From the NCBI GenBank assembly GCA_039796615.1, contig JBDKJL010000038.1, forward strand, positions 78,033 to 142,032: a stretch of 64,000 nucleotides of DNA, written 5' to 3'. The translations under genes and the position numbers were made by a program. Positions 3,508 through 60,385 of the stretch are shown here, in pieces. The notes below the pieces were generated by a model that saw only the letters and a program-made list of their open reading frames with translations, had not been told where the DNA came from and did not search any database. This DNA comes from Candidatus Parcubacteria bacterium. GTDB taxonomy: Bacteria > Patescibacteriota > Patescibacteriia > 2-12-FULL-60-25. The number at the start of each line of letters is the position of its first letter. Position 1 is the stretch's first letter.

Positions 3508-4071
3508 TCACGCGTATCGCACAATGATTTCGCGCGATTCGCATGGACCGAGCCGCGGAATGATGGTGCCTTCTTCTTTAGGCATCGCGAACTGCTCGAG
3601 GGCAATAAGCAAAAGCTCGTCTCCAAACAGAGCGGCGTGTGTTGCTGTTCGTGGAGACAGAAGTTTTAGCAGTTTAGCCCACGCCTCTTTTGCGTGTTTC
3701 ATGAGGATGCGACGCGCATCTTCATCCGCAAGATACACGTGAGGTGGCTGATCCCCAATGCGTTTGGAGAGGCTCGTGAACAGCTCGCGCCATTTATTAT
3801 TATGCCCCATATAGAACTCTTCTCGATGCAGAGGAAAAAAATCCTCGCCACAGAGATCCATACACACCGCTTCCGTCGTTCTCATGGCGCAGGGTGTTGG
3901 AGAACTTATGACGAGTTGAGGGACAAAGTCCTCTGCTCGCCAGGCTGCCCCAAGCTCTAGGGCTTTCCGGTGACTCTCCGGCGTAAGATCACCGGTGGAT
4001 GGACTCGGATCCTTCGCGAGTTCGCCATACCGGACGAGCCGCACGAGAGCTTTGTCATTTTGTGTTGTCAA
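3508..4071 (-). CDS. Histidine phosphatase superfamily (SixA/PGAM-like) paralogue with a degenerate catalytic motif
   Basis: This 187-aa ORF has N-terminal LVRLVRYGE where the family has RHGE (His replaced by Tyr), and a second-His region TATHAALFGDE. It is paralogous to 4068..4625 and 11925..12461. The TTG start overlaps the upstream stop by 4 nt; an alternative GVR-proximal GTG start is possible. Confidence 0.55.
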   Translation of the reverse strand: MTTQNDKALVRLVRYGELAKDPSPSTGDLTPESHRKALELGAAWRAEDFVPQLVISSPTPCAMRTTEAVCMDLCGEDFFPLHREEFYMGHNNKWRELFTSLSKRIGDQPPHVYLADEDARRILMKHAKEAWAKLLKLLSPRTATHAALFGDELLLIALEQFAMPKEEGTIIPRLGPCESREIIVRYA

Positions 4072-4725: not shown

Positions 4726-5793
4726 TTAGGATGTTTCGTGGCCGTTTCGTTTTTTGAGGGCGATGTAGAGCTCAATAAAGGCCAGGAGCAGGCTCACGGC
4801 CAAGGGGCCGAGGAGGAAGCCAAAGGGGCCAAAAAAGGTAAGGCCGCCGATCACGGCAAGGAGAACTACCAGGGGGTGGAGTTTCATCCCGCTGCCTACG
4901 AGCGTGGGGCCAAGGAGGTTGTCGATAAGCCCTACGGCGATCATCCCCCAAAGCAATAGTCCAAAGGCTGCGAGGGCGTGGCCGGTGAGGAAGAGGAAAA
5001 TAACGGCCGGGGTGATAACGATCGCTGTTCCCACGCCTGGGATGAGCGCCGTGATGGCCGCCATACTCCCCCACAGCGCGGCGTTGGGTACGCCGAACAG
5101 AAACAGCCCGGTGCCGGTGAGCGTGCCTTGAATGAGGGCGATGGCGAGGTTTCCCTTCATCACACTCGACACGGCGGTTTGAAGCCGGGTAACGATAAGC
5201 TGATCATCACGATCTGCGAGCGGGCTAAGCGTGATGAGATAATTTTTGAGCCGATCACCATCTTTTACCAGGAAGAAAAAAGAAATGAGGAAAATGATGC
5301 TGCCGAGCCCCACCTGTGCAGCGCCAGAAAAAGCAACGCCGATATTTTGAGCCAACGCACCTGCGCCTTGGCGAATGGATTGATTAATATCCACCGTAAA
5401 ATCTGCCGGGATGGGGAGCACGGTGCGCAGTTGCGCGATCCCCGTGTTTATCGCCTCCATAAATCCGTCGCGCGTGCCTCCGGCGAGCGCTTGGTAAACG
5501 GCGCGGGATTCCTGGAATAGTTGCACGCCCAGTGCGGTGATGGGAATAAGAATCACCGCCATGGCGAGCACCGTGGTAACGCCGGCCGCGAGCCCCTCGT
5601 GTCCTCGGAACCATTTTCGGAGTCGCTTATAGGGCGCTTGAAACAAAAACGCGAACATCGCCGCCAGGAGCAAGGTGTTGATGAGCGGCTGCACCATGAG
5701 CGCCACAAGCACGAAACATCCAACGAGGCAGATCAACAAAAAAGCCATGGATGTTTTATCAACCGGCACATGGTGAGAAGGAGAGGAGCGCAT
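4726..5793 (-). CDS. AI-2E family transporter (PerM/UPF0118)
   Basis: This 355-aa ORF has 7-8 TM helices and the typical family layout, with the C-terminal segment IDNLLGPTLVGSGMKLHPLVVLLAVIGGLTFFGPFGFLLGPL. Confidence 0.8.
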   Translation of the reverse strand: MRSSPSHHVPVDKTSMAFLLICLVGCFVLVALMVQPLINTLLLAAMFAFLFQAPYKRLRKWFRGHEGLAAGVTTVLAMAVILIPITALGVQLFQESRAVYQALAGGTRDGFMEAINTGIAQLRTVLPIPADFTVDINQSIRQGAGALAQNIGVAFSGAAQVGLGSIIFLISFFFLVKDGDRLKNYLITLSPLADRDDQLIVTRLQTAVSSVMKGNLAIALIQGTLTGTGLFLFGVPNAALWGSMAAITALIPGVGTAIVITPAVIFLFLTGHALAAFGLLLWGMIAVGLIDNLLGPTLVGSGMKLHPLVVLLAVIGGLTFFGPFGFLLGPLAVSLLLAFIELYIALKKRNGHETS

Positions 5794-5824
5794 GGATCTA
5801 TTTTACGATTTTTTTGAAGGGGGT

Positions 5825-5996
5825 GCAAGCGAAAGCAGAACCCCAGATTCTTTTGGGCACACACAGGAGACACCTCTTATTTATGGGCTGCGAGATTGTT
5901 CCGCATCGTGAGAGGCAGAAAAAACAGCTCTCGCCCATAAATAAGAGGTGTCTCCTGTGTGTGCCCAAAAGAATCTGGGGTTCTGCTTTCGCTTGC
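5825..5996. repeat. 172-bp fold-back element, copy 1 (64-bp perfect arms, 44-nt loop)
   Basis: Left arm 5825..5888 is the exact reverse complement of right arm 5933..5996. Loop 5889..5932 is TGCGAGATTGTTCCGCATCGTGAGAGGCAGAAAAAACAGCTCTC. The element starts 2 nt from the TAG stop of the ABC-F gene. Confidence 0.9.
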
Positions 5997-5998
5997 GT

Positions 5999-7480
5999 CT
6001 ATAGCAATGTCTTTAGATCCAATCGTTCATCAAAACGGATCTGGCTCACGAAGTCGGGCGCGTGGCTCACCAGGATAATGCCGCCCTGGTAGGCTTCGAG
6101 GGCTTTGGCGATCACGGGGAGGTGACGAAAATTAATGTGGTTGGTGGGTTCATCCAAAATCAACAGGCCCGGTTTTTGAAGCACGAAGCGCGCAAAGCAC
6201 AGCAGCCCTTTTTGCCCTTCGGACAGCGCGGCCACGGGTTGCTTGAGGAGATCAGAGGTTAAGAGAAACTCCGCGGCTACAGCGCGCAAGCGTTCGTTAT
6301 CTTTCATGTCCATCATTTCTTCGAGCGAGGCGTAGGCGGTTTTGTCGTAATCCAACCCCGAAAAATCCTGGCGGTAGTAGCCCACACGCAAATCCTTGGC
6401 GAACACGGCTCCTTCGTCGCTATTTTCTGCCAGATGCTGGAGCAACGTGGTTTTGCCGATCCCGTTGGGGCCCGAGATCAAGAGACGTTGCCGCTTCCAG
6501 AGCTTTAGGACGTACGGTTTTCGTACCGGCGCGCGATCTTTGATCACGGTAATGCTGTTGATCGTAACGAGCGCCTCGGGCATGTCTTGTGCGGGGATGG
6601 TGAAGTCGCGGATGGTTTTATCGTCACGACGGATTTCTACGATGTTCTCCTCAGCCTCTTCCACCTGATCCCGGAGCTTGCTGGCGAGTTTACGCATCTT
6701 CCCCCCTTTGTTGGCAAAAAAGTTTACTTTGTCTTTACGATCCTGAATCTCTTTAAGCATCCGTGCATTTTGCATGCGATCGCGTTCCAGGCGCGCGGCG
6801 ATTTCTTCGAGCACGTTGTAATAGTTGCCCACGTATTGCTCCACCTTGCCGGTGTGCACATCGAGATGCAGCACGCCTTCGGAAAAGGTGTTCAAAAAAT
6901 CCGCGTCGTGCGAAATCACGAGCACGGTTTTGGGATACATCATCAAAAATCCGGTGAGGTGCTCGATCCCCTCTTTATCCAGATTGTTCGTTGGTTCATC
7001 CAGGAGCAAAATATCCGGTTCCTGGATGAGCGCGTAGGCCAAAAGCAATCGCGCCTGTTGCCCCCCAGAAAAGGTTTTGATCTGTTGCGTGAGGGGCGCG
7101 TCCAGGTTTACCGTTTCGAGCACATTTTTGATGCGGCGATCCAGATCGTATTGGATTTCCGGAAAAGCGTGCGCAAAAAATTCCGACATCGTGTCGTTGT
7201 GATATTCGCGCGGCATCACCTGCAATCCAATTCCGATGGATGCGCCGCTTTGAATATGCACGGCGCCCTCCTGTGGTTTTGTAGCCCCGGTGATCAGTTT
7301 AAAGATGGTGCTCTTCCCTGCCCCGTTTTGACCCATCACCGTTACCTTGGCGTCTTGGCGTACGGAAAAACTCGCTTCATCTAAAATGGCGCGGCCGTCG
7401 TCGTAACGAAAGGTGACGTCGCTAAATCGGATGATGACATTTCCGTGATCGTTTGCCATAGGTGAGGAGGATGATACCAA
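5999..7480 (-). CDS. ABC-F family ATPase (two ABC domains, no TM domain)
   Basis: This 493-aa ORF has two Walker A sites (GQNGAGKST, GPNGIGKTT), two signature motifs (FSGGQQARLLLAYAL, LSEGQKGLLCFARFV), two Walker B motifs (ILLLDEPTN, LLILDEPTN) and a charged interdomain linker. Confidence 0.9.
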   Translation of the reverse strand: MVSSSSPMANDHGNVIIRFSDVTFRYDDGRAILDEASFSVRQDAKVTVMGQNGAGKSTIFKLITGATKPQEGAVHIQSGASIGIGLQVMPREYHNDTMSEFFAHAFPEIQYDLDRRIKNVLETVNLDAPLTQQIKTFSGGQQARLLLAYALIQEPDILLLDEPTNNLDKEGIEHLTGFLMMYPKTVLVISHDADFLNTFSEGVLHLDVHTGKVEQYVGNYYNVLEEIAARLERDRMQNARMLKEIQDRKDKVNFFANKGGKMRKLASKLRDQVEEAEENIVEIRRDDKTIRDFTIPAQDMPEALVTINSITVIKDRAPVRKPYVLKLWKRQRLLISGPNGIGKTTLLQHLAENSDEGAVFAKDLRVGYYRQDFSGLDYDKTAYASLEEMMDMKDNERLRAVAAEFLLTSDLLKQPVAALSEGQKGLLCFARFVLQKPGLLILDEPTNHINFRHLPVIAKALEAYQGGIILVSHAPDFVSQIRFDERLDLKTLL

Positions 7481-8676: not shown

Positions 8677-9741
8677 CTATTTCTTCCAAATTCCCTTGGC
8701 GGCGCTCCAGGCCAGTTTGGCGAAGAGAACGAGAAGGAGGAAGTACACGAAGTATTGCAACACGAGCAACAGGAGGGTGATGAGGCGCACGGAGAGATCC
8801 TGTGCGATGGTATTTACATCACGCACAAATTCTTTTACAGCCATCTTCCAGGAATCCTTGAGCTGTTCGCCATCCAGGTATTTATTCTCAAAGATGTTTA
8901 CGGAGAACGAGGTGTATTCCACCTGATCCATCTGTTCATTTTTGCCGCGCTCCAATCGATCGAGTTGCGCGTTTACCGTGAGCTGTTCCTGAGTAAGCCG
9001 TTCAATCGTTTGGATTTTACTGTCGATAATTTTGGCCAGGCTCGCGGCATCTTGCGAGGCGGTGGCGAGTGCCGTGATTTGATCGTACGCGCGCGTGGCG
9101 CTATCGAGGGTGCTTGCGATGGTGTCGCGCTTCTTTTTTAAGATGTCGATTTCGCTGGTAAAATCATCCACCGTGCGCTGGATCGTGTGCGTGTTTTCGG
9201 TGAGATCCTTTGGATCCAATCCTTCCAACGTGGCGAGAACACCCTCTGCGCGCGCTTTAACCACTTTGAAGTGGTAGTTGCAATAATGATCGGATTCACT
9301 TGCTACCTCAAAAATAATTTCTTTATCGGCTTTGAGGGCAGACACGGCGCTGCAGGTTTTTTTCAGATCGCGTGTTTCGATGGTGGCGTTGTAATCTGTT
9401 GCTTCAAAATTTTCTGCGCCATCGCCAACAGCTTGCGCGGTATCCATCGGTGATTCTGCCATGATGTTGCGAACGGACAAGCCCGGCATCCCTATTGGTG
9501 CCGTATTACCGATCATTTTGCCGCGCGCAAATAACATATTGCTTCCGTAGGAATCGACGGAAGGCTCACTCATCCCAATGCCGCCCAGCATGCCGCCTCC
9601 TCCCATGCGCAACATCGAATGGAACGGTGTGGCCACGAGCCGAACGCCGATGGCGAGCAGGATAATCACCGCAATCGCTATGCCGAGGATTTTAAGCAGG
9701 GCAAGCGGTTTTGTAGGGATCTTGGAAAAGTCGATGGACAT
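8677..9741 (-). CDS. Membrane-anchored coiled-coil protein, DUF4349-like
   Basis: This 354-aa ORF has an N-terminal TM helix, a central coiled coil (DDFTSEIDILKKKRDTIASTLDSA...QLDRLERGKNE) and a C-terminal TM pair. The layout matches my recollection of DUF4349. Confidence 0.5.
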   Translation of the reverse strand: MSIDFSKIPTKPLALLKILGIAIAVIILLAIGVRLVATPFHSMLRMGGGGMLGGIGMSEPSVDSYGSNMLFARGKMIGNTAPIGMPGLSVRNIMAESPMDTAQAVGDGAENFEATDYNATIETRDLKKTCSAVSALKADKEIIFEVASESDHYCNYHFKVVKARAEGVLATLEGLDPKDLTENTHTIQRTVDDFTSEIDILKKKRDTIASTLDSATRAYDQITALATASQDAASLAKIIDSKIQTIERLTQEQLTVNAQLDRLERGKNEQMDQVEYTSFSVNIFENKYLDGEQLKDSWKMAVKEFVRDVNTIAQDLSVRLITLLLLVLQYFVYFLLLVLFAKLAWSAAKGIWKK

Positions 9742-9771
9742 AGGGAGGGGTTAAGGATTTTTAGAATCTTA

Positions 9772-9943
9772 TCACATAAGCATATGTATAGAGGTATTTT
9801 CTGGCACACACAGGCAGTATCCCTTATTTGTGGGCTGCGAGATTGTTCCGTAGAGGGAGGGGCAGAGAAAACAGCTCTCGCCCACAAATAAGGGATACTG
9901 CCTGTGTGTGCCAGAAAATACCTCTATACATATGCTTATGTGA
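9772..9943. repeat. 172-bp fold-back element, copy 2 (64-bp perfect arms, 44-nt loop)
   Basis: Left arm 9772..9835 is the exact reverse complement of right arm 9880..9943. Loop 9836..9879 is TGCGAGATTGTTCCGTAGAGGGAGGGGCAGAGAAAACAGCTCTC. The outer 8 nt of the right arm contain the last two codons and the TAA stop of the HAD gene (9936..). Confidence 0.9.
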
Positions 9944-10556
9944 GCAGCGCTTCCATATTGCGTATGACGCGCCAGAGCTTGTCATCTTCTGGATGTGGTT
10001 CTGCGTTGAATTGTGGCCACATCATGCGGATGAGGGTGACCCAGGGCGCTTTTTTGTGGACATCCAGGAGTTGCTCGACGGTGTCGTCTACGAAAAAAAT
10101 GGCTCCTTCCCCCATTTGCTGGATCACCTCCCCTTTTGTGCGATCTTTCCATACGTAGTGCGCCTCACGGATGGATGGGCGGAGACTCGTGGCTCCGGCG
10201 ACTTTTGCGCGTTGGATATCGGGGTGTCCGAATGTGAGAATATCGCACGAGCTCGTGCGAGCAAGTTGCGCGATCGTATCAGCGGCACCGGGGAGGAGGA
10301 ATTGATTTCCGTCGGCCATGTAGCCGTAGAATCGTTCGATGTTTTGCGGCATGTCTTCTAATGGCATGCCAAGAAGTTTTAGGTGTCCTTCAAAGGTATA
10401 CCCTTCTCCTGCGCGCGTTTGCGCACGCGCGGCATCCACCTCTTCGGCGGGGTATCCTTGGCCGATCAGTGCGTCTCGAACCAATCCAAAGAGTTGCTCC
10501 GTATCGTAAAGCGTGCGGTCGAAGTCGAAAATCCAGCGGGAAGTGTTGGTATTCAT
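9936..10556 (-). CDS. HAD superfamily hydrolase
   Basis: This 206-aa ORF has N-terminal motif I, WIFDFDRTLYDT (DxDxT), and a later FFVDD motif. Confidence 0.7.
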   Translation of the reverse strand: MNTNTSRWIFDFDRTLYDTEQLFGLVRDALIGQGYPAEEVDAARAQTRAGEGYTFEGHLKLLGMPLEDMPQNIERFYGYMADGNQFLLPGAADTIAQLARTSSCDILTFGHPDIQRAKVAGATSLRPSIREAHYVWKDRTKGEVIQQMGEGAIFFVDDTVEQLLDVHKKAPWVTLIRMMWPQFNAEPHPEDDKLWRVIRNMEALLT

Positions 10557-14083: not shown

Positions 14084-17000
14084 TTAGGCGCGTTTAAGAA
14101 TGGTAACGGTGCCGGTGTTCGCGTCCACTTCTACCTCATCCCCATCGTGGAGAGCTTGCGTGGCAACTTTGGTTCCTACAAGGCAGGGTTTTTTGAGCTC
14201 GCGGCTCACAATGGCCGCATGAGAGGTGAGACCGCCGGTATCGGTGAGGATGGCGGCGGATTTTTTCATCGCAAAGACGTATTCCGGGGATGTCATGGGC
14301 GCGACCAATATTTCGCCATCTTGGAAGGTTGCTTGTTCGGGATCGAGTAAAATGCGCACCTTGCCCGTGGCTTTACCCGGGCTTGCGATGGTACCGTGAA
14401 AGGAATCCACAAGCGCCTCAAATTTTTCTTGCGCAAAGATTTCCCAATAGTGTTTTGCATCCGCTTCGTGAAAACGCTCCACGCGGTGAACACCATGGAA
14501 CCCTCCATATGAACGTAGAGTGACGCGCTGTTTCTCCCGGATAACACGTGGAATTTCGTCCCAGAACAGGTCGAGAAGGGCGTCGGCATCATTCCCGGTG
14601 CGTCGTGCCGCTTCTTGCAGAAGAAGATATTTGTAATGCAGGCCGATAAAAATATATTTTTTGCGTTCGTCTTGCCACTCAATATTTTTAACAGCCGTTT
14701 CGGCGATATGCTGGATATTCTTATTTAATTTGAATTTTTTGATGCACGCCGTTTTTTTCTTCTGGACGTCTTTAAGACGTGCGGCCGCCGCATCGTCAAA
14801 ATCCTGCGGAATCTCCTTTTTCCGCTCGCGGAAAAATTCTTCGTCTAAGACGCGTACGCCCCCATAGCTATTTTTGAGCCAGTAGTATTTTTTAGCGTGT
14901 GCGGAAATATTTTGTGTTTTGAGGAGCTCGCTCTCCTCTTCTTGGTAGAACGACGCCTCTTCCGGCGCTAACAATACTTCCATGGCTTCTTTGCGTTCTT
15001 TCTCTTGAGGGATGACGTGCGCAAGCTCCGTTTCAAGTAACACATCTGCCCCATAGTTTCCAAGTTCCGGTGGAATAGTGGGTGTCCAGAAGGCGATCAT
15101 CTTTTGATGGTAGTCCGTCCACAGGTCGAGGAACGCGTCATCCGAAAGAGATGTAATGTCGAGTGTATCTATGCGCTGCTGTGTTTTTTCGAGTACCGCA
15201 ATAGCCTCTTTCCATTCTGCATACAACCCTGCACGAAACGGCTCATCAAGCATCTGCGTTTGGAAAACGCGTACGGCCTCTTTTTGCAGAGAAGGAAAGT
15301 CGTTAATCCACACCATACGCTTTTCATGGAACAGCATGAGCCACTCTGGCCAGGGGTATCCGAACCGTTTTTCGAGCATCTCACCACATTCCGTAATAAA
15401 CTCCGACACGAAAAACACGCGTCCCGGCACAGGCCCCCATCGGAATACATTCTTCCCTGCTGGAATACTGACAGGTGTGGAAGATGGATACTCGGTGGAT
15501 GCGCGATGCAGAATTTTGATGATGCCGGTGTTCGCGTCCACCTCCACTTCATCTCCGTTATGGAGCACTTGGGTTGCGATTTTGGTGCCGATGATGCAGG
15601 GCTTCTTCATTTCGCGGCTTACGATGGCCGCGTGGGAGGTGATACCGCCGCTATCGGTAACGAATGCGGCTGCTTTTTGCATGATCGGAACGTAGGCGGG
15701 CGTTGTTTCGGGCGCAACGAGAATCTCGCCTTCTTGAAATGCTTCCATTTCATTTGGCATAAACATCACACGGACAATCCCGGCAACGCGGCCTTTGTTT
15801 GCGATAGATCCCTTAAACGTCGTAATCGCTGTTTCTTGTTTGGGAATAAATTGATCTACAAATGCCTGGAGCTCTGCTCCGGTAACCACAACGATACGGC
15901 CTTGGTGCATAAACGCCCCATGGCCAACTTTTCGTTTTTCAATTTCTGCCGCGTTTGCCTTGATCCCTTGTTGGCACCATTCGATAATTTCTTGGTGCGT
16001 GAGCCAAATAAAATCCTCGTAAGAGATTCCAAGCTTTTTAGACAAATGAGAAAAAAGTGGCCGCGCGGCGTAGCTTACGCGATTCACCGTTTCGGCCGTT
16101 TGTAATCGAAGCCATGCAAATAATCGGGCGACTTCGAGGGCGAAGTGAAGATCCGGGGCGTCGCTTATCGATGCCTTGTGGATTGGCGCGTCTGTGACGG
16201 TATTTATATCTTCGATGAGTCGCTGCGCCGTGTAAGGCGTTCCCCAAAAATGGTGCGTCCCCACCCAGGCGTATGTATCAACTAACTGTTGGAGGCGCTG
16301 ATAGAGCGCGGGATCGTTTGCCTGTAAGCGACCCAACGCTGCGTCGTCCATGTGTTTGTAGCCGTGATTTTCCAAATCCTCCCGGAAGGAAAGAAGCTCC
16401 TGTTTCTGCTCCATGGAAAACGTTTTTCGATCTGGATGCATGTGGCCGGACAGTTCTTCGAGCGCATATCCGTGCTTCCGTGCCGTTTCGGTAATGAAGT
16501 CTTGACCAACATCTCCGATGTAAAAAATCCCGGCCCACGAACCCGTAATCTGGTGGTAGCGGTTAAAGAATTCCCGGAACAATGCGACAGGTTCTTCATC
16601 TGTGAAACGCTCCAGCCTGTCGATGAGTTCCGTGAAGTGATTCAGTGCCTTTTCTGAACGGGCGACATATTCCTGGAAAAAGGAAATATCGTTGATTTTT
16701 AATTTTTCTTTTGTGAGTGCCTTGATCGCGTGGCTACTTTTTGCATCAAAGAATCCGTGCCCGTCGAACGTGAGCACCTCGCCAGTTACCTGGATCCCGA
16801 ACGCTTTTAATGTCTCCCCCTCCCCCCACTGGAACCAGGGCGACCAAGCAAGCGTAGGGCCTTTCCATTGACCCATGTAAACGTAATCCTCTTTACGGAA
16901 AGAGGGGGCGTCTGGAGTATGACGTTTAAGAATTCGAACAATGCCGTTGTTTGCGTCTACCTCCACTTCATCGCCATCCTGCAGTGTATGCGTTGCCGTT

Positions 17001-20000
17001 CTGGTGCCGATGATGCACGGCTTATTTAGTTCGCGCGAAACAATGGCCGCGTGGCAGGTGATCCCCCCTTCGTCGGTGACAATGGCCGCCGCCTCGCGCA
17101 TGAGGGGGACGTATTCTGGACGGGTCATCCCCGTAACGAGGATTTCTCCAAATTGAAAAGAGGAAAACTGATCCAAAGATTTAATCACGCGGACACTCCC
17201 CCGGGCGTACCCCTTATTTCCGATGCTTCCGTGGATTTCGTTTGTGCCTTTCTCGGTTTCGCCGACGAATGCCTCATGGATGAGCTTGGCGTTTTCTTCC
17301 ACGCGGTCGTATGAAATCTCGATTGGTCCAGAATATGGAACGTACACGACATATTCCTCCTCCCGTTTCAGGAGTTCATCTTTGATGGAGGCGACGTAGG
17401 AGGATCCTTGAATGAGTTCCTGGCATGGCAAAATATTTTCGATGAGTTTTCGATCCACTCCCGCTTCTTGGAACAGGCGTTCTGCAATGCGCCATGCGAC
17501 GGTAATCCCCTTTGCGAAATGATTTTTTCGTTCATCGCGTGTTTGCATGACCGTTTGGCAATAACGCACAATGAGCGCCTGCTCTGCGGAAAGCGTACGG
17601 ATCCAACGGTTAAAGGCGTCTTTTTTCTCTGCCTGCTCATGATCCATGTATGCAAGCTCCGCGCGGGCATGCTCTATATCATGAAGGAAGGCGCCGTATG
17701 TTTTTTGAAGTTCTTCACGGACCTGCTCCAATGCGTACACGTTTCGATAGGATGTCCAGAAATATTGGCATGACTCCAGGAGCGTTTCTTCGGGCTCTTT
17801 CGCAATAATCCGACAAAGGAGGTCGCGTTTTTGTGCTCGATCGAACGATTCGGCAACCATCTCTGTTGCGCGTTGCCAAATCGTTTCAATATCCTGTCTT
17901 GAAATGTTGAGATTGGCCGACTGTACGACATTCCAGCACAAATCAATATCAAAAAAGAGGGAAAAATGTGACCACGCGTTTGTTTCCCAGAACTGATCAA
18001 ACGCATGTTGGATGGTCGCTACGAGTGCGGATTCTGGTTGATTTTTAATGTATGGACATCGATACGTTTCATAAAGCGCATCAACCGTTGGGAAATTTTT
18101 ATGAAATTGTTCTAAGCGTCGTTCAAGCGATGAGGGATCTTTTAAAAACGTTTCAAATCCTTCTATGGCGTAACAGGGAAACGTTTTTTCGGGAATCAAT
18201 GTTTGCGTTTGTCCATGATGCCTAATATTGATGAGCCCGTAGTTTACCCCGCAGTGAAAAACAGGGCTGTAGTATTTTTCCGTGTTGTATCTAGACCCAA
18301 AAATAAAGAGGGAGTAATTGTGAAGCGGAGGGTAGATTTTATCCCCGCCGAGTTCATCGATAAATTTTTGCGCGAGAAGCTTTTGCTCACTTTGGCGAGA
18401 CAGAATACGTACGATTCCATTGTTCGCATCCACTTCTACCTCATCCCCATCCTGCAACACCTGTGTGGCGATTTTTGTGCCGACAATGCAGGGTTTTTTG
18501 AGTTCGCGCGCCACGATGGCGGCGTGGGAGGTGATGCCACCGACGTCGGTGATGAACGCGGCCGCCTTTTTCATGGCGGGGAGTAGTTGCGGGCTGGTGG
18601 CGGTAGAGATGAGAATATCCCCCTCCTCTACCTTCCCGTTATGTTGCGGGCCAAACACGAGCTTTACCGTTCCGCGTGCAGTACCCGATTGCGCCACCTG
18701 TCCTTTGAGTTCGCCGTTATTTTCTGTTTTTGGGGGTATCACGCGCGTTTTCACATACGCATCAGCCTCGCTCCCCGTGATGACCGCACAACCATCTCCA
18801 TTTTTAATAATCACGGCATGTTTCCATCGTTCTTCCAAATTTGTGGGGAGAGATGCCGCGCCCTCGATCACGGCAATGAGCTCTTGCGCAGTGAGGGTGC
18901 CAAGAAGCCGCACCGGAACATTGTATTCTGCCGCCAGCCGCTTGAGCATGCGGTTTACGATCACAAATAGGGCTTGTCGGGCTTCTGTGCGGATGGTTTT
19001 GATGAAGATGATGTCTCGCACGGTGCGGAATAGCTGTGCTTCCTGTTCCGTGAGTGCGAGCTCTTTTTGCAGTGCGGCGTGTGGCGCTTTCGGTGAGGGC
19101 GCTACGGATTCACGGATATGCGCGATCTGTTCATCTGTAAGGCCTGTGCCGATGTACCCTTGATCCAACCAGAAGTATTTTTTTTGCAATTCCGCGCTTG
19201 AGGCACTGCTCTGACGGATATCCGCATACGCTTGTTCGGTATGGCTGAGCGCTTCGGGCGCGCCAAGAACGGTAGCGTAATAGGAGGCGGGATGCGGCAG
19301 ATTTTTCCGTTGTGCGAATACGCTCATGAGCCGCTCTGTTACGGCGCCGAAGACATCGGCGAAGGCAACCACCATGCCAAAGCGTGTACAATCTGCCTGG
19401 ATTTCGTAGGCGCGCGCAAGGATCGCCGGATAGTTGGATACGGGGCAAACTTCTATCTGCTCTCGAACCTCGTTCGCATACGCCCAAATCTCATTTGAAT
19501 GCGTGATGGTTTTTTCTTTTAGTTCATCGAGTAACGGTCGGTTGGTGAGCACGGCGTCTGCGCACGTTTGGATGAGCGTTCGAGAAGGCTCCTCCTCTGT
19601 GTAATAGTTAATCACGCTCCCGTTCACCACTTCTAAAAAAGCATCTGGTTCCGACAGACCGATCTGCTCCTTGATGCGCGTATCACGCACCCCTCTCCAG
19701 ACGTTCTCCAGCGTGAGCACGGATGTGTCGACATCTTGGTTGATGCGTGTGTAGGTGCGGTTTTTTGATTCGGCATTTTGCGCACGGTTTAAAATACGCA
19801 CAACGCCGTTATCCGCATCCACCTCCACCTCATCGCCATCATGTAGTGCTTGTGTGGCGATTTTGGTGCCGATGATGCAGGGCTTTTTCATTTCACGAGC
19901 CACGATGGCGGCATGGCAAATAACGCCGCCTTCGTCTGTAACGAACGCACTCGCGCGCTTCATGGCTGACAAAAAATCCGGTGTTGTCATGGGCGCAACC

Positions 20001-23000
20001 AAGACATCCCCTTCTTGAACGTGCACCATGTCGCTTTGTTTCTTTACGATTTGCACACGCCCCCGTACGATTCCTTTATAGGCCACCTGACCCGTGATCG
20101 TGTCGGACGTAGAGATGGCGGTCTCTTTATACGTATATTCTGGATGACTCTGGCCGAATGCCTCGAGTGTCCCGCGGTAATGCTCCGTTCCGTCGATCAT
20201 CACAAATGCCTGCAGCCGCTGCTTCAGCTCTTCTTCAGACGGAAGCGCGTTTAATTCATGTGGGAGCACCACGCCCGCCAGCTCCTCAGAGATGCCTCCA
20301 AGATGGGCGATCATTTTTCTTACAAAAAGATCATTTTCTGCAAAGAAATCCGTGTCTTTTCTTGATTGTACGGAGATCGCTTTTGCGGCATCCGGGCTAC
20401 GGTCATCCAATCCTGAATAAAAGAACAGCGTGAGTTTGAAGATCGCATCGTAAATCAAGTCCGTATATTCTTTGATATCCACGACGTCTGTGAGAGGTCC
20501 CTTTGAGCGTAATTGCGCAAGCCGTACGAGCGGTGCTTTATACGCACGAGCGAGCTCTTCTAAAAATGCCGGATTGGCATTCGCGGATAGGAGTTTTTCC
20601 TGGAACCAGTTGAAGGCTTTTTCGTGTTCCCAAATTTCTACAACCCCTTGATGAACATAATGCGTTAGCATCGGCGGAAACGGATTTTCCCAGCCGAGTG
20701 TTGATTTAATCTGTTCCGTTAAACTCTTTACCCACAACACCTGCATGAAGAGCGTGGTGTCACGGGAATAGGATTTTTTGAAGACGGCTTTTTTATCTGC
20801 TTCTGTGCGTTTCAAAATCCGCACAACGCCATTATTCGCGTCCAACTCCACCTCATCCCCATCTTTGATGGCCTGTGTCGCGATTTTTGCGCCGATGATG
20901 CATGGCACATTGAGTTCGCGGCTCACGATGGCGGCATGGGAAGAAATACCTCCTTCATCGGTGATGATGCCGCCTGCCTTGCGCATGAGGGGGACAAATT
21001 CAGGCCGCGTCATCATGGTGATGAGGATGTCACCCCGCTGTAATCGTTTTGCGGCCGGGCTATCTGGCGATGGCACGATGCGCGCGATTCCTTTGACGTA
21101 GCCTTGGCATGCGACGGCGCCTTTGATTTCATCGACATCTGTACGTGGGAGACGCTTGCAGAGGCGTTCAAAGAGCTCTGTCGCCTTATCCCCCTCAAGA
21201 TACGAGATGTTATTTTCGTGATAGATCGCAATAATCCCCTCGCGTTCGCGACGCTTGAGCATTTCGGCATCGATAGATCCTAAAAAGACGTCTTTTACCT
21301 CGTCGAGTGTGAGATCATTTAGGAGTGCGCGATCGATTCCCTGTCGTGCAAGGCCTTCACAAACGAGTCGCGTACAGCCATAAAGGCCGACATAATTGAA
21401 TCGCTTACGGTCATCACGCCAGATAGCGAGCGTTTGAAAAATTTCAAGAGGGTTTTCTTTTAATCCATGTTTCTTGAGAATTTTTTGTTGCTTTTTTGTC
21501 GGCGAAACGAACGGATGTACGTGGACGTCTTTTGCCTTCTCCCGCAGCCATTGTTCGTCGATTTCTTGGAACGTTTCGTAATCCGTACCGATCCAAAAAA
21601 ATTCGTTCAGGAATGCCTCCGCCGATTTCTTTCCCGCATTGAGGTCTGCGAGTGCCTGTTCAAGCTCTGTCACATACGATTGTTCCTGTGGCATGAGAAG
21701 ATCTGCGGCTTCTTGAGCCGAAAATCCATGCTGCTGCACGATACGGTGGATTTCTTCCTGATCAAATCCGGGATCAAATGAATCGAGGAAAAGGGAAATC
21801 CCCCACATTTCCTGATCTTTTTTGAGAACGGTTTGAAACCGCTCCCAAAGCTCTTCGTTGGTGAGTGTTTTGAGATCCGCTCGCCAGATTTCATGAGACG
21901 CCTCAAATAAGGCTTGTTTCAACCGCTTCCATTCCGTTTCCCATTCGGGTGGAAAACCGTTTTTTGTTCGTTCAAAAAAGGCGTCTGCGACCTGCTTCAT
22001 CCCCGCTAAGTCAAATAAGTTTGTGACGTGTTTTTCTTTGTAATACACACACCAATTCCCGTATCCGATGGAAAGGTATTTTTTAACTCCTTCAAATGAG
22101 GTAAGAGGATACGAAATTTGATGGAATCCGATTTTACCTCCTTGACGGTAGAGGGGGGCTTCTTGTGAAAAGGCTTCGTTGCCCGCCGCTTTTTTGAAAA
22201 TTCGCACAACGCCGTTGTTTGCATCCACTTCTACCTCATCTCCGTTATGGAGTATTTGGGTCGCGATGTTGGTGCCGATGATGCAAGGCTTTTTGAGTTC
22301 TCGGCTTGCGATTGCGGCATGGGATACGATCCCTCCTTCATCAGAAATGATCGCTGCGGCACGTTTCATGCCGACAATAAAATCCGGAGTGGTTGTACTC
22401 GCCACGAGGATTTCTCCTTCTTTGACCGTATTTGCATCCTGACGATTGCGTACGATGCGGACGTATCCACGCGCAACGCCAGGATAAGCGGAGACACCAC
22501 GGCACTCTGTCGCGGATGGATCTGCTGTGGGGATGACCAATTGGATGCGCTTTTGCATCTCTTTCATCGCCTCTCCGGTGAAAACGCCTTGCGGTGTGAT
22601 CAAATACCCCTGCGCACGTTCTTGTAGGGTTTGTGCTGAGGGCGCATGACCCGTTGTGCATTCTTCGACGGTCAGGAGGTCGCGATATTGAACGGGTACA
22701 CCTGTGAATTGGGCAATGGAGTTGCGGAGGACTGCATCGGCTCCTGGGATCATCTTTTCTCCGCGACGACGGAACGTCATGAGGCGTTCTACGATGTCTT
22801 TTTTTGTCGGTTGGTGCTCAAGATTTTCGATCCCCCACCAAACTCCCGTATACCATGACCATACGATTCGTAGTGCTTCGATAAACGACGCGAGTTCTTT
22901 TTGTGTGAGCGCGGATTCTTTTTGAACGATCTGCTCAACGGCGTCGTAGGCCTCGTTTGCGTATTTTAGAAGCCACTCGATATAAGACGCGTCTTGCTCG

Positions 23001-24175
23001 ATGCGGTGATTTACTTCTTCACCTTGTTTGAGCGTTTGTTTTTTATCGAGAAATAGTTGCTGCGCGCCGAGGCGGCCGACCGTTACAAAATATGGTTCGC
23101 TGAGAGATTGACCATCCATCCATGGCTGCGGACCACTTTCCACTTCCGTTGCAATTTGCATTGTCGCTAACGTGAAATCACGCGTTCCAAATAAATCCAA
23201 ACGCGGAATGGCTTCAGGAATTTCCTCTAACGGCTTCAACGTCGTAATCGGTCGGCTTTGCACGATGTAAAAAATTCCATCTTCCATCGCCCACTCAATA
23301 TCGCAGGGGAAACCATAGTGTTGCTCGATGCGGAGGATGAGGTTTGAAAGCTCTTGGATCTGCGGTTCGGTGAGCACTTGGGATTCGCCGAGGGCGGGTG
23401 AAAGGTCGCGCCATTCGTTGCCGCCGTGTGTTGAGCGATAGAGGGCGCGGGTTTGATGGCTTACGTTGATGTCGATAATCCGACGCGGATTTTTTTCCAC
23501 CACGTAGCTATCGGGGGTTACCTGGCCGCTCACGATGGCTTCGCCAAGGCCGAATCCGGCTTCGATAATCAGTTGGTTATAATCTTCGGTTACCGGATGC
23601 ACGGAAAACGCGATCCCGCTGGCGTCGCTTGCCACCATTTTTTGCACCACCACGGCCACGGAAATGCGCTGGCTGTGAAGATCTTTTTCAAACCGATAAA
23701 AAATGGCGCGTGGCGTAAAAAGCGATGCCCAGCAGTTTTGGACATTTTGGAGCAAGGTCTCTTCTGTCGTATTCAAAAAACTATCGAGCTGCCCGGCCCA
23801 GGCGGCGCTGGCGCTGTCTTCGGCGGTGGCAGAGGAGCGCACGGCAACGTGTTCGGCACCGAGTGCCTTAAACTGCACGCGAATATCTTCGGCGATGTCT
23901 TGAGGCATCGCGACACTTTTGATGAGCGCCTGGATTTTTGCCGAAGCCTGCTCCACCGTATGAATCTCCTGATGATTTACGGTGTGGAGCGTGGCGTCGA
24001 TTTCTGTATTCAGCTCTGTTTCCTCCAAAAATCGGTCAAATGTGCTCGCGAGCACCACAAATCCCGGTGGCACCGGGATCCCCGCCTGGGTCATCTCCCC
24101 CAAGGACGCGCCTTTTCCCCCGGCATCCCCCACATCCTCTTTAGAGAGCGCAGAGAACGGTTTTGAGATGGGCAT
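14084..24175 (-). CDS. Giant (3363 aa) PpsA/rifampicin-phosphotransferase-like protein: one ATP-grasp domain followed by seven [helical domain + swivel phosphohistidine domain] modules
   Basis: This is a single uninterrupted ORF starting at ATG 24175. The N-terminus has PPDK_N/PpsA motifs (GGKGASLGEMTQAGIPVPPGF, VAVRSSATAEDSASAAWAGQ, IIEAGFGLGEAIVSGQVTPD, DIEWAMEDGIFYIVQSRPIT). Seven GG-x-x-[SC]-HAAI-x-[SA]-RE...PC-I/V-I/V-G...DGDEVE-V/L-DA-x-x-G motifs place the catalytic His at aa 619, 1080, 1421, 1884, 2375, 2848 and 3319. I did not recognise a PEP/pyruvate-binding TIM barrel. Confidence 0.9.
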   Translation of the reverse strand: MPISKPFSALSKEDVGDAGGKGASLGEMTQAGIPVPPGFVVLASTFDRFLEETELNTEIDATLHTVNHQEIHTVEQASAKIQALIKSVAMPQDIAEDIRVQFKALGAEHVAVRSSATAEDSASAAWAGQLDSFLNTTEETLLQNVQNCWASLFTPRAIFYRFEKDLHSQRISVAVVVQKMVASDASGIAFSVHPVTEDYNQLIIEAGFGLGEAIVSGQVTPDSYVVEKNPRRIIDINVSHQTRALYRSTHGGNEWRDLSPALGESQVLTEPQIQELSNLILRIEQHYGFPCDIEWAMEDGIFYIVQSRPITTLKPLEEIPEAIPRLDLFGTRDFTLATMQIATEVESGPQPWMDGQSLSEPYFVTVGRLGAQQLFLDKKQTLKQGEEVNHRIEQDASYIEWLLKYANEAYDAVEQIVQKESALTQKELASFIEALRIVWSWYTGVWWGIENLEHQPTKKDIVERLMTFRRRGEKMIPGADAVLRNSIAQFTGVPVQYRDLLTVEECTTGHAPSAQTLQERAQGYLITPQGVFTGEAMKEMQKRIQLVIPTADPSATECRGVSAYPGVARGYVRIVRNRQDANTVKEGEILVASTTTPDFIVGMKRAAAIISDEGGIVSHAAIASRELKKPCIIGTNIATQILHNGDEVEVDANNGVVRIFKKAAGNEAFSQEAPLYRQGGKIGFHQISYPLTSFEGVKKYLSIGYGNWCVYYKEKHVTNLFDLAGMKQVADAFFERTKNGFPPEWETEWKRLKQALFEASHEIWRADLKTLTNEELWERFQTVLKKDQEMWGISLFLDSFDPGFDQEEIHRIVQQHGFSAQEAADLLMPQEQSYVTELEQALADLNAGKKSAEAFLNEFFWIGTDYETFQEIDEQWLREKAKDVHVHPFVSPTKKQQKILKKHGLKENPLEIFQTLAIWRDDRKRFNYVGLYGCTRLVCEGLARQGIDRALLNDLTLDEVKDVFLGSIDAEMLKRREREGIIAIYHENNISYLEGDKATELFERLCKRLPRTDVDEIKGAVACQGYVKGIARIVPSPDSPAAKRLQRGDILITMMTRPEFVPLMRKAGGIITDEGGISSHAAIVSRELNVPCIIGAKIATQAIKDGDEVELDANNGVVRILKRTEADKKAVFKKSYSRDTTLFMQVLWVKSLTEQIKSTLGWENPFPPMLTHYVHQGVVEIWEHEKAFNWFQEKLLSANANPAFLEELARAYKAPLVRLAQLRSKGPLTDVVDIKEYTDLIYDAIFKLTLFFYSGLDDRSPDAAKAISVQSRKDTDFFAENDLFVRKMIAHLGGISEELAGVVLPHELNALPSEEELKQRLQAFVMIDGTEHYRGTLEAFGQSHPEYTYKETAISTSDTITGQVAYKGIVRGRVQIVKKQSDMVHVQEGDVLVAPMTTPDFLSAMKRASAFVTDEGGVICHAAIVAREMKKPCIIGTKIATQALHDGDEVEVDADNGVVRILNRAQNAESKNRTYTRINQDVDTSVLTLENVWRGVRDTRIKEQIGLSEPDAFLEVVNGSVINYYTEEEPSRTLIQTCADAVLTNRPLLDELKEKTITHSNEIWAYANEVREQIEVCPVSNYPAILARAYEIQADCTRFGMVVAFADVFGAVTERLMSVFAQRKNLPHPASYYATVLGAPEALSHTEQAYADIRQSSASSAELQKKYFWLDQGYIGTGLTDEQIAHIRESVAPSPKAPHAALQKELALTEQEAQLFRTVRDIIFIKTIRTEARQALFVIVNRMLKRLAAEYNVPVRLLGTLTAQELIAVIEGAASLPTNLEERWKHAVIIKNGDGCAVITGSEADAYVKTRVIPPKTENNGELKGQVAQSGTARGTVKLVFGPQHNGKVEEGDILISTATSPQLLPAMKKAAAFITDVGGITSHAAIVARELKKPCIVGTKIATQVLQDGDEVEVDANNGIVRILSRQSEQKLLAQKFIDELGGDKIYPPLHNYSLFIFGSRYNTEKYYSPVFHCGVNYGLINIRHHGQTQTLIPEKTFPCYAIEGFETFLKDPSSLERRLEQFHKNFPTVDALYETYRCPYIKNQPESALVATIQHAFDQFWETNAWSHFSLFFDIDLCWNVVQSANLNISRQDIETIWQRATEMVAESFDRAQKRDLLCRIIAKEPEETLLESCQYFWTSYRNVYALEQVREELQKTYGAFLHDIEHARAELAYMDHEQAEKKDAFNRWIRTLSAEQALIVRYCQTVMQTRDERKNHFAKGITVAWRIAERLFQEAGVDRKLIENILPCQELIQGSSYVASIKDELLKREEEYVVYVPYSGPIEISYDRVEENAKLIHEAFVGETEKGTNEIHGSIGNKGYARGSVRVIKSLDQFSSFQFGEILVTGMTRPEYVPLMREAAAIVTDEGGITCHAAIVSRELNKPCIIGTRTATHTLQDGDEVEVDANNGIVRILKRHTPDAPSFRKEDYVYMGQWKGPTLAWSPWFQWGEGETLKAFGIQVTGEVLTFDGHGFFDAKSSHAIKALTKEKLKINDISFFQEYVARSEKALNHFTELIDRLERFTDEEPVALFREFFNRYHQITGSWAGIFYIGDVGQDFITETARKHGYALEELSGHMHPDRKTFSMEQKQELLSFREDLENHGYKHMDDAALGRLQANDPALYQRLQQLVDTYAWVGTHHFWGTPYTAQRLIEDINTVTDAPIHKASISDAPDLHFALEVARLFAWLRLQTAETVNRVSYAARPLFSHLSKKLGISYEDFIWLTHQEIIEWCQQGIKANAAEIEKRKVGHGAFMHQGRIVVVTGAELQAFVDQFIPKQETAITTFKGSIANKGRVAGIVRVMFMPNEMEAFQEGEILVAPETTPAYVPIMQKAAAFVTDSGGITSHAAIVSREMKKPCIIGTKIATQVLHNGDEVEVDANTGIIKILHRASTEYPSSTPVSIPAGKNVFRWGPVPGRVFFVSEFITECGEMLEKRFGYPWPEWLMLFHEKRMVWINDFPSLQKEAVRVFQTQMLDEPFRAGLYAEWKEAIAVLEKTQQRIDTLDITSLSDDAFLDLWTDYHQKMIAFWTPTIPPELGNYGADVLLETELAHVIPQEKERKEAMEVLLAPEEASFYQEEESELLKTQNISAHAKKYYWLKNSYGGVRVLDEEFFRERKKEIPQDFDDAAAARLKDVQKKKTACIKKFKLNKNIQHIAETAVKNIEWQDERKKYIFIGLHYKYLLLQEAARRTGNDADALLDLFWDEIPRVIREKQRVTLRSYGGFHGVHRVERFHEADAKHYWEIFAQEKFEALVDSFHGTIASPGKATGKVRILLDPEQATFQDGEILVAPMTSPEYVFAMKKSAAILTDTGGLTSHAAIVSRELKKPCLVGTKVATQALHDGDEVEVDANTGTVTILKRA
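14087..14398 (-). repeat. Swivel phosphohistidine domain copy 8 (giant protein module 7, C-terminal)
   Basis: The motif is GGLTSHAAIVSRELKKPCLVGT, with the His codon at 14219..14221. Limits are approximate. Confidence 0.8.
15500..15811 (-). repeat. Swivel phosphohistidine domain copy 7 (module 6)
   Basis: The motif is GGITSHAAIVSREMKKPCIIGT, with the His codon at 15632..15634. Confidence 0.8.
16919..17230 (-). repeat. Swivel phosphohistidine domain copy 6 (module 5)
   Basis: The motif is GGITCHAAIVSRELNKPCIIGT, with the His codon at 17051..17053. Confidence 0.8.
18392..18703 (-). repeat. Swivel phosphohistidine domain copy 5 (module 4)
   Basis: The motif is GGITSHAAIVARELKKPCIVGT, with the His codon at 18524..18526. 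Confidence 0.8.
19781..20092 (-). repeat. Swivel phosphohistidine domain copy 4 (module 3)
   Basis: The motif is GGVICHAAIVAREMKKPCIIGT, with the His codon at 19913..19915. Confidence 0.8.
20804..21115 (-). repeat. Swivel phosphohistidine domain copy 3 (module 2)
   Basis: The motif is GGISSHAAIVSRELNVPCIIGA, with the His codon at 20936..20938. Confidence 0.8.
22187..22498 (-). repeat. Swivel phosphohistidine domain copy 2 (module 1)
   Basis: The motif is GGIVSHAAIASRELKKPCIIGT, with the His codon at 22319..22321. Confidence 0.8.
23215..24175 (-). other. ATP-grasp nucleotide-binding domain (PPDK_N type) of the giant protein; the only one in the locus
   Basis: It covers aa 1 to about 320 of the giant ORF and carries the PpsA N-terminal motifs listed above. 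The lower boundary is approximate. Confidence 0.8.
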
Positions 24176-45138: not shown

Positions 45139-45172
45139 GGAAGATGATGGATAAAACCACACCCCCTCATGT

Positions 45173-45503
45173 GTCATCCTGAGGAAGGTCGCTCCTGCAG
45201 CCTTTGAAAAGGCAATGGGCCGCCAGCGACCGACGAAGGACCCCTTTGTATTGGGAGAGGGTGATGCAACGCACACCGTGTCGCTTTGCAGGAGAGAGGG
45301 AGAAGTGTGAATATGCGAACCTTTGAAGAAGGATTGTGCGTAAACCCTTCCTACAAAGGATTGCAGAGATAGGAACATTTATCTCTATCCTCCAAGAGAT
45401 GTTTCCTTGCTGAGAAATGTTATCAAAAGAAAGGGGTCCTTCGTCGGTCGCGGGCAATGTGTTGCCCTTACATGGGCTGTGGCGCGACCTTCCTCAGGAT
45501 GAC
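45173..45503. repeat. 331-bp nested inverted-repeat element between convergent genes
   Basis: The outer 20-bp perfect inverted repeat is GTCATCCTGAGGAAGGTCGC (45173..45192) paired with 45484..45503. The inner 22-bp perfect inverted repeat is GCGACCGACGAAGGACCCCTTT (45226..45247) paired with 45430..45451. Several local hairpins lie inside. Confidence 0.85.
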
Positions 45504-45536
45504 TTATGAGAGGCATCCATTTTACTCGTCACTTTC

Positions 45537-57965: not shown

Positions 57966-58092
57966 CGCGATCGTTGCGGCGGGGTCTCGGGGGCGATCGG
58001 CGGGGTAGCCTTTTTTCGGATCTCGGCTAGCGCCTTCGACCGAAAAAAGGTACCACCGCAACGATCGCGAGACATAACGGGGAGTTACATCT
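57966..58092. repeat. atp-operon palindromic element, copy 1 (atpD-atpC spacer)
   Basis: Core 57989..58068 is GGGGGCGATCGGCGGGGTAGCCTTTTTTCGGATCTCGGCTAGCGCCTTCGACCGAAAAAAGGTACCACCGCAACGATCGC. The tail is TAACGGGGAGTTACATCT. An extra outer inverted repeat lies at 57966..57983 and 58054..58071. Confidence 0.85.
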
Positions 58093-60366: not shown

Positions 60367-60385
60367 ATGGAGAAAAACTGTCTGG

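Follow-up and report, generated by a model that had tools for sequence, protein, structure and literature searches.

A family of fold-back elements with perfectly matched arms and a conserved apical module: an unusual variant of bacterial palindromic repeats in a Candidatus Parcubacteria genome

What keeps the two arms of a long palindrome identical to each other when copies of the same palindrome have diverged? This question is raised by two fold-back elements in the 64,000-nucleotide stretch of Candidatus Parcubacteria DNA analysed here (the window). The window is housekeeping DNA and encodes ATP synthase, primase, sigma-70, UvrB, GltX and the like. An ABC-F protein encoded next to one of the elements is identical to a 'Candidatus Parcubacteria' MAG protein, and its relatives are from Uhrbacteria or Patescibacteria. 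The parts of the two elements are listed here; a truncated third copy, element 3, is described further below.

5825..5996, no strand assigned: element 1, complete fold-back of 172 bp
5825..5888, no strand assigned: left arm of element 1, 64 nt, made up of a variable part (arm positions 1-26), a T-rich part (27-31), box 1, an 8-nt variable segment and box 2
5856..5867 (mirror 5954-5965), no strand assigned: box 1, GGCACACACAGG, 12/12 identical to element 2 and with two substitutions in element 3
5876..5888 (mirror 5933-5945), no strand assigned: box 2, CTTATTT(A/G)TGGGC, 12/13 identical between elements 1 and 2
5889..5932, plus strand: apical module of element 1, asymmetric, with a bulged T at 5889
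5890-5895 paired with 5927-5932, plus strand: apical 6-bp stem of element 1, GCGAGA/TCTCGC, enclosing a 31-nt loop at 5896-5926
5933..5996, no strand assigned: right arm of element 1, exact reverse complement of 5825-5888
9772..9943, no strand assigned: element 2, complete fold-back with 64-nt arms
9772..9835, no strand assigned: left arm of element 2, 64 nt, with box 1 at 9803-9814 and box 2 at 9823-9835
9836..9879, plus strand: apical module of element 2, with a bulged T at 9836, a 6-bp stem and a 31-nt loop
9880..9943, no strand assigned: right arm of element 2, with the mirror boxes at 9880-9892 and 9901-9912

The initial annotation had described two fold-backs with mismatch-free 64-bp arms spaced 44 nt apart, and this geometry was confirmed, the arms being 100% complementary in both elements. 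The 44 nt had also been taken for a loop. The spacing is correct, but the segment is not a fully open loop: the bulged T is followed by 6 bp, which leaves a true loop of 31 nt. The predicted RNA fold of element 1 has an energy of -143 kcal/mol (z = -20.9), and none of 200 shuffled sequences was as stable. Long perfect palindromes are otherwise almost absent from the 64 kb, where only one further hairpin, with 27-bp arms, was detected; this solitary perfect hairpin lies at 38376-38437. The ends of the two elements differ, with GCAAGC.../...GCTTGC in element 1 and TCACAT.../...ATGTGA in element 2.

The blocks that the initial annotation reported as shared by the two elements are all present. The 5' end of the loop region, TGCGAGATTGTTCCG, is identical at 15/15 positions, and its 3' end, GCAGA(A/G)AAAACAGCTCTC, at 17/18. 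Box 2 is kept in all three copies, and its lone A/G change is compensated on the opposite arm. Within the 31-nt loop the ends are conserved and the 11-nt centre is semi-variable (YAKNKKGAGRG). The core 20-mer occurs twice in the window, compared to 0.04 occurrences expected by chance. The apical module folds with similar quality on either strand and showed no strand-specific covariation, which makes covariation uninformative for assigning a strand. A conserved peptide encoded by the loop was considered and rejected on inspection of the sequence, as the ATG of element 1 is missing from element 2.

Each element occupies the gap between two co-directional genes on the minus strand, where it lies at, or overlaps, the stop codon of the upstream one. 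The neighbouring genes are as follows.

4726..5793, minus strand: AI-2E-family transporter gene, downstream of element 1
5999..7459, minus strand: ABC-F ATPase gene, with its stop codon adjoining element 1
8677..9741, minus strand: 354-aa ORF that lies downstream of element 2 and is unrelated to the AI-2E-family gene next to element 1
9936..10556, minus strand: 206-aa ORF, HAD-like (FMN phosphatase in the JGI naming), which takes its last codon and stop from element 2

Element 1 begins 2 nt past the stop codon of the ABC-F gene, and 31 nt lie between its end and the AI-2E-family gene. In element 2, the stop codon of the 206-aa ORF (9936-9938) lies inside the right arm, and 30 nt separate the element from the 354-aa ORF. 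A leader common to paralogous downstream genes can be ruled out, since the two downstream proteins are unrelated. The stems are not intrinsic terminators, as the initial annotation had judged from their length: none is predicted at either element, no T-run lies on either side or strand, the stems are 64+6 bp long, and the elements have a G+C content of 45-50%. No promoter was predicted inside element 1 or 2. A scan of both elements against Rfam at gathering thresholds returned no match, so that a known Rfam family can be dismissed, and a permissive scan returned only weak matches far under the cut-offs (best E-value 0.079).

Comparison with relatives revealed how the elements came to be at these sites. 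In the nearest orthologous locus, L026, an ABC-F gene whose product is 89% identical is followed by a 36-nt spacer and then by an AI-2E-family gene, whereas the window has a homologous 33-nt spacer plus the 172 bp of element 1. More distant ABC-F loci also lack the element. Orthologues of the 206-aa ORF end in ...EELI*, and the window protein ends in ...EALLT*. Deleting 9773-9942 (170 bp) yields ...EALL*, exactly the length of the orthologues. Since this removal restores the C-terminus to orthologue length, element 2 entered the last codon of the gene and brought a new stop codon with it. The whole 170-172 bp thus forms a discrete insertion, placed in either orientation at a stop codon or beside it within a tightly packed gene array. 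Target duplication was inconsistent: element 1 is flanked by ...GGGGGT and GTCTAT, where a GT/GT duplication is possible, and element 2 by ...TCTTA and GCAGCG, where there is none. A flanking motif, TTCNAAAAA(A)TC, is found 5-6 nt from elements 1 and 2. It was rejected as a target site, being present at the empty site too and absent beside element 3, and is probably a native feature of the gene leaders. No transposase, recombinase or reverse transcriptase gene was found in the window and the extra called genes (~76 kb in total).

We compared independent assemblies of the two loci. The JGI assembly of the same organism has both copies in identical form, and the Logan contigs of SRR35185531, a separate run, match the window at 100% identity. 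One of these contigs, L040, ends at 9914 and includes the outer 30 nt of the right arm of element 2; another, L045, begins at the inner end of the left arm of element 1 and spans the full 64 nt of that arm. An inverted repeat is expected to break a de Bruijn unitig at k-1, and the 30-nt stop equals k-1 for a k-mer of 31, which we take to be the length used for the Logan assembly. The initial annotation had asked whether the palindromes were assembly artefacts. At the level of contigs, the separate run supports the inverted repeats and makes an artefact unlikely.

A third copy was found ~9 kb beyond the left end of the window.

L044:22290-22414, in opposite orientation to the neighbouring gene: element 3, a truncated copy cut by the end of the JGI contig

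The 44-nt apical module of element 3 is identical to that of element 1 at 39/44 positions and to that of element 2 at 41/44. Its box 2 is unchanged, box 1 carries the two substitutions, and the short variable segment is 1 nt shorter. All 17 visible bases of the right arm are perfectly complementary to the left. Element 3 also abuts or overlaps a stop codon, the TAA of a 263-aa gene, and its loop is inverted relative to that gene. The orientation that the initial annotation gave as common to the family, 3' of a minus-strand gene and upstream of the next, therefore holds for elements 1 and 2 and fails for element 3.

The family comprises at least three copies, all within ~19 kb; neither the rest of the window nor a further 12 kb of this genome contains another. 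A profile built from the three copies (nhmmer) detected no further copy in the remaining ~57 kb of this genome and no half-elements or solo arms, nor were near-identical sister copies seen in the ~76 kb. The same profile found no copy in 138 kb from the nearest CPR relatives. Exact-word scans, which would miss diverged family members, were equally negative: TGGGCTGCGAGATTGTTCCG gave 19 matches in the JGI metagenome contigs, all in conserved coding sequence (...LGCEIVP...) and none with arms, and TTATTTNTGGGCTGCGAGA gave 12 matches in 185,579 species-representative genomes, all by chance in unrelated genomes. Several of these 12 matches lie inside a conserved coding sequence, ...LFMGCEI.... Four scans of the IMG/VR viral contigs, with the conserved blocks and a palindromic box-1 pattern, gave no or only chance matches, and distant-mode blastn against phage and plasmid collections found no similarity. 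Within the collections scanned, the family thus appears specific to this organism.

We then examined how the arms differ between copies. The initial annotation counted more than 30 differences between elements 1 and 2; the actual number is 28 in 64 positions. Its claim that every difference is mirrored on the opposite arm was fully borne out (28/28). Arm divergence is 44% between the two elements and 0% within either. Neither a mismatch nor a G-T/G-U pair was found in the 2 x 64 pairs, or in the 17 visible pairs of element 3. Given the mirrored differences and the lack of mismatch or wobble, templating of one arm from the other, as was proposed at the outset, is the most economical explanation. 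A second, unrelated hairpin family is present in operon gaps of the same assembly, and its stems are imperfect, with wobble pairs and compensatory changes. The perfection of the stem is therefore specific to the 172-bp family, and the survival of imperfect stems in the second family indicates that perfect stems were not imposed by the assembler. The absence of G-T/G-U from ~140 pairs argues against pure RNA-level selection and, together with the inverted third copy, points to a process at the level of DNA. Template switching is a documented means by which imperfect inverted repeats (quasipalindromes) are corrected into perfect ones (PMC7202029), and it has been proposed as the cause of the preferential conservation of perfect inverted repeats (PMC5941160).

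The outer arms had been described as completely different between the two copies. At first sight this is so, with only 7/26 identities in the outermost 26 nt of elements 1 and 2 and different termini again in element 3. However, the 39 variable columns of elements 1 and 2 contain 12 identities, 16 transitions and 11 transversions. The purine/pyrimidine class is kept in 28/39 of these columns (P = 0.005 analytically, 0.006 against random segments of the window), and the transition:transversion ratio of 16:11 departs from the ~1:2 expected for unrelated sequences (P = 0.005). Elements 1 and 3 have CCAGATT.TTTTG in common, and 17/31 outer-arm bases match with a 1-nt shift. By these measures the outer arms are diverged homologues rather than unrelated sequences: they are saturated, and their likeness fades outward from the core with no sharp boundary. 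On the same evidence the copies are old paralogues, in which the unconstrained arm segments are saturated and the differences are mostly transitions. The variable segments had no match longer than 11 nt in the window and the fetched loci, which rules out guides or captured spacers. The empty sites indicate that the outer arms are neither captured flank nor a pre-existing hairpin, since the whole 170-172 bp is inserted. The description of the family as the reverse of a MITE is consequently too strong; the outer arms are homologous and belong to the discrete insertion.

Collectively, these results tentatively suggest that the family is a lineage-specific, non-autonomous REPIN/MITE-like palindromic repeat whose core is a putative recognition site for a protein. 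We hold this reading at somewhat less than even confidence, since no partner protein was seen and only three copies are known. The small size, lack of coding capacity, three copies and empty orthologous sites (L026 and the orthologues of the 206-aa ORF) are traits of MITE-type elements. A trans-acting protein whose gene lies elsewhere in the genome probably recognises the apical module with its extrahelical T. By analogy, this core resembles the hairpin determinants read by HUH/Y1 enzymes, and the likeliest partner would be a mobilising enzyme that acts on the hairpin form, in the way that REPINs and IS200/IS605 are moved by HUH/Y1 enzymes. The two arms of each element probably stay identical through template-switch correction. 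During replication, a mutation in one arm would be either reverted or copied across to the other, likely by intramolecular template switching or by hairpin-templated repair, and the palindrome would evolve in concert. Erasing or copying each new mutation in this way would give mirrored divergence between copies and none within them. If transcribed, the ~70-bp stem would offer an orientation-independent site for RNase III or a protector of 3' ends; such RNA-level effects are likely to be by-products, as in Correia elements. RNase III cleavage and cruciform formation, both foreseen by the initial annotation, are plausible as predicted consequences of the stem.

Several observations count against the REPIN/MITE-like reading. 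Classical MITEs have conserved termini and a target duplication, and this family has neither. With no copy found in any other genome scanned, ongoing mobility or insertion polymorphism is without support in the scanned data. The arm length of 64 bp is the same in both elements despite the saturated outer arms, which looks more constrained than neutral drift with indels predicts, and a function for the host would likewise be compatible with a core that stays conserved in old copies. Conservation and perfection are both read from a very small sample of three copies, two of them complete.

The strongest alternative is a structured, cis-acting RNA, which we regard as possible though unlikely. The elements would then be operon-internal processing or stability elements placed after stop codons, serving as an RNase III site or a block to 3' exonucleases; changes in the stems would be compensatory substitutions, and the conserved loop would serve as a contact between RNA and protein. 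The setting favours this, as all copies lie in very short intergenic gaps 3' of a stop codon and are almost certainly transcribed, and neither a promoter- nor a terminator-like site is predicted at element 1 or 2. Differences rich in transitions that keep the purine/pyrimidine class are what G-U intermediates would produce, and operon gaps of the same genome harbour a second hairpin family with compensatory changes. However, selection on RNA tolerates wobble, which that second family has, whereas ~140 stem pairs here contain neither a G-U pair nor a mismatch. Inversion of element 3 means that its conserved asymmetric loop would be transcribed as the complement, and neither strand is clearly favoured by the fold of the apical module or by its covariation. 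The lack of an Rfam match and the absence of the element from the orthologous gaps of relatives also count against it.

Could youth alone account for the perfect arms? Each copy would then be a very recent insertion from a different, long-diverged master, with no correction at work. The orthologous sites of the nearest relatives are empty, which bounds the age of the insertions from above and not from below, and in the only other sample with the elements they are 100% identical. Yet arms that diverge by 44% between copies that are each perfect would require masters that stayed perfect, which again needs correction or regeneration, and the ~76 kb contain no near-identical sister copies. We consider this explanation improbable.

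A further possibility to which we give little credence is that the elements represent an undescribed class of self-templating fold-back DNA. Here the apical hairpin with its extrahelical base would be the sole inherited recognition module. We think it just as doubtful that, in such a class, one arm is regenerated by snap-back at transposition or by continuous hairpin-directed repair and the ends are set by their distance from the core, a scheme from which identical 64-bp geometry, perfect arms and non-conserved termini would follow. In the stricter form, one arm and the loop are propagated, the second arm is rebuilt by snap-back synthesis from the 6-bp stem, and arm perfection is reset at each transposition. 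The perfect arms alongside an asymmetric, conserved apical hairpin able to prime fold-back synthesis, the equal arm lengths of elements 1 and 2 and the absence of target duplication are all consistent with this form. Nevertheless, candidates for a polymerase, reverse transcriptase or nuclease are absent from the window and the extra called genes, no half-elements or solo arms were found, and ordinary template-switch correction explains the data equally well. We know of no precedent for a self-templating fold-back family, and this form has, in our estimate, a slim chance of being correct.

More doubtful still is a site for protein binding or recombination at the DNA level, in which a site-specific recombinase, a nucleoid protein or a cruciform-binding protein would attach to the symmetric boxes and the asymmetric centre, and the palindromy would allow a cruciform to be extruded. 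The arrangement of two inverted box pairs, set at constant distances about an asymmetric core that has an extrahelical base, would suit such a site, as would the clustering of three copies, one of them inverted, within 19 kb. Protein binding, however, does not require palindromic spacer segments, no recombinase gene is nearby, and the copies are separated by conserved housekeeping genes such as that for ABC-F.

Insertion of a 120-bp conserved element into the loops of pre-existing, locus-specific hairpins, for example terminators, is largely refuted and very hard to credit: the solitary 27-bp-arm hairpin in the window and an outer 26 bp that seems unrelated at first inspection speak for it, but the empty site L026 is a 36-nt spacer with no such hairpin, the frame at element 2 is restored by removing 170 bp and not 120 bp, the outer arms keep the purine/pyrimidine class and are partly shared by elements 1 and 3, and they have no T-run. 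Least credible of all is an artefact of assembly or amplification, whether through collapse of an imperfect repeat or through a chimeric fold-back; inverted repeats can be collapsed by short-read de Bruijn assemblers and two contigs do terminate within the elements, but a specific conserved core recurs at three loci with locus-specific differences, two assemblies and the separate-run contigs agree at 100%, imperfect hairpins persist in the same assembly, and the elements fit the reading frames sensibly.

If the REPIN/MITE-like reading with arm correction is true, the family would provide a clean natural case of concerted evolution inside a small bacterial palindrome, and a natural reporter of template-switch or hairpin-directed correction in an unculturable organism. 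It would also extend hairpin-type repeats such as REPINs and MITEs to the CPR/Patescibacteria, whose genomes are so tiny and tightly packed that every 172-bp insertion is costly. The architecture is also inverted, its centre being conserved and its ends free, and one may ask what defines the ends of such an element. There are practical consequences as well. Palindromes of this kind break short-read assemblies, as the two contigs that end within them illustrate, and they alter gene ends, with element 2 providing a new last codon and stop codon.

How do these elements compare to known systems? The attC sites of integrons have conserved core sites, R''(RYYYAAC) and R'(GTTRRRY), on the outside, a variable centre and imperfect stems. 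Like attC, which is recognised as a folded single strand and relies on an extrahelical base for its function, the elements form imperfectly symmetric hairpins with an extrahelical base and are found directly after stop codons, and they too would be recognised in folded form. They are nevertheless not attC sites: the element ends have no core sites, the conservation is central, there is no integrase, and housekeeping genes lie between the copies.

Closer in general appearance are MITEs and the Correia (CREE) and ERIC elements, which are likewise non-coding sequences of 100-200 bp that form a full-length hairpin and occur in intergenic, often transcribed gaps in either orientation. In contrast to MITEs, which have conserved terminal inverted repeats, a fixed target duplication and imperfect stems, the termini here are the least conserved part, no consistent duplication is present and the arms are perfect. 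No parent IS or transposase of the MITE type was seen in the ~76 kb, and the elements contain no conserved ORF. Correia elements interact with RNase III and are defined by 26-bp conserved terminal inverted repeats, a TA duplication and a Neisseria-type core (PMC2649163). Identity with them can be rejected, as the elements have neither conserved termini nor a TA duplication, and the phage and plasmid collections gave no similar sequence.

Quasipalindrome correction and arm-to-arm gene conversion in large palindromes predict exactly what is seen in the arms, namely mirrored differences between copies and no mismatches within them. Such correction has been demonstrated in E. coli, on short inverted repeats, rather than for a dispersed CPR family with 64-bp arms, and it accounts for the perfection but not for the conserved core or the insertion.

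The closest parallel is with REPINs, long hairpins with compensatory changes that a single-copy RAYT gene mobilises in trans (PMC3116915). Like the 172-bp family, REPINs are multi-copy, extragenic and without coding capacity. In each case a pair of inverted conserved boxes gives rise to one long hairpin, and the paired segments that are less conserved change by compensation, seen in the 172-bp family as mirrored changes. Both are also thought to be active as a single-stranded hairpin served by an enzyme encoded elsewhere; no gene for a RAYT (Y1 HUH transposase), which repeats of the REPIN type usually flank, was found in the ~76 kb of this genome. They differ in that REPINs have conserved 16-mers at their ends and a variable spacer, whereas here the conserved module is apical and likeness fades toward the ends. 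REPIN stems are imperfect and those described here perfect over 64 bp, and REPINs number tens to hundreds of copies compared to the three known here. The boxes, moreover, are not themselves small palindromes and have no evident GTAG/CGTC-type REP tag. Together, these comparisons place the 172-bp family as an unusual variant of known bacterial palindromic repeats, not as a new kind of system.

The leader of the downstream gene next to each of the two 172-bp perfect fold-backs, elements 1 and 2, carries the motif TTCNAAAAA(A)TC, with the element lying 5-6 nt upstream of it in the sense of the gene. The motif was located at three sites:

Window 5800-5818, beside element 1
Window 9750-9766, beside element 2
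L026 (a relative's locus, ABC-F 89% identical) 3594-3610, at the empty site orthologous to element 1

Because the empty orthologous site also has the motif, it is native flank. AAAA+T was found in only 6 of the 38 leaders in the window. TTCNAAAAA(A)TC is either a mildly preferred target or a motif of gene leaders.

A reverse-transcriptase gene (RVT_1, 413 aa) was found in a related CPR genome (ABC-F 81% identical), lying a few kb away from that genome's orthologous ABC-F locus, and the window has no counterpart of it:

L024:14369-15610 and L025:9093-10334, RVT_1 gene

A second hairpin-repeat family, unrelated to elements 1-3 and ~90 nt per copy, was observed between the genes of the ATP synthase operon; a further copy sits outside the window:

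Window about 57984-58076, 60385-60475 and 63168-63258, copies in the operon gaps
L049:699-791, further copy

Its conserved ends are CGATCGGCGGGGT ... ACC(A/T)CCGCAACGATCG, and its stems are imperfect with clear compensatory changes (TTCGG/CCGAA, CGTGG/CCACG and CGCGG/CCGCG). An Rfam scan at the gathering threshold gave no match to the family. A partial motif of this family is present at window 55696-55723, where this genome's two JGI contigs break.

A further structure, with arm complementarity of 74-77% and an MFE of -201 kcal/mol (z = -12.5), had no match in Rfam:

Window 45130-45545, 416-nt imperfect fold-back filling the gap that separates the convergently oriented dus and M23-peptidase genes

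Region 33060-33660 is probably a tRNA gene split by an intron, with a homing endonuclease. An apparent tRNA 3' half, GTGGGTTCGAATCCCAC...GGAGCCA (minus strand), directly follows the intron; ARAGORN reported no tRNA in the whole window.

Window 33155-33432, minus strand, group I intron (RF00028, 85.9 bits)
Window 33332-33658, minus strand, HNH-type ORF of 108 aa overlapping the intron

The window also encodes a protein of unusually large size for a CPR genome:

Window 14084-24175, minus strand, 3363-aa ORF with PPDK_N and PEP-utilizer domains

Two smaller genes with PEP-utilizer domains flank it, and a 100-nt stretch (19849-19948) is 88% identical to part of the adjoining 499-aa gene.

Finally, a solitary perfect palindrome lies within the 527-nt gap between dnaG and the divergently oriented ORF starting at 38520:

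Window 38376-38437, 27-bp arms, 8-nt loop and A5/T5 flanks

This palindrome looks like a bidirectional terminator, yet its location is that of a promoter region.
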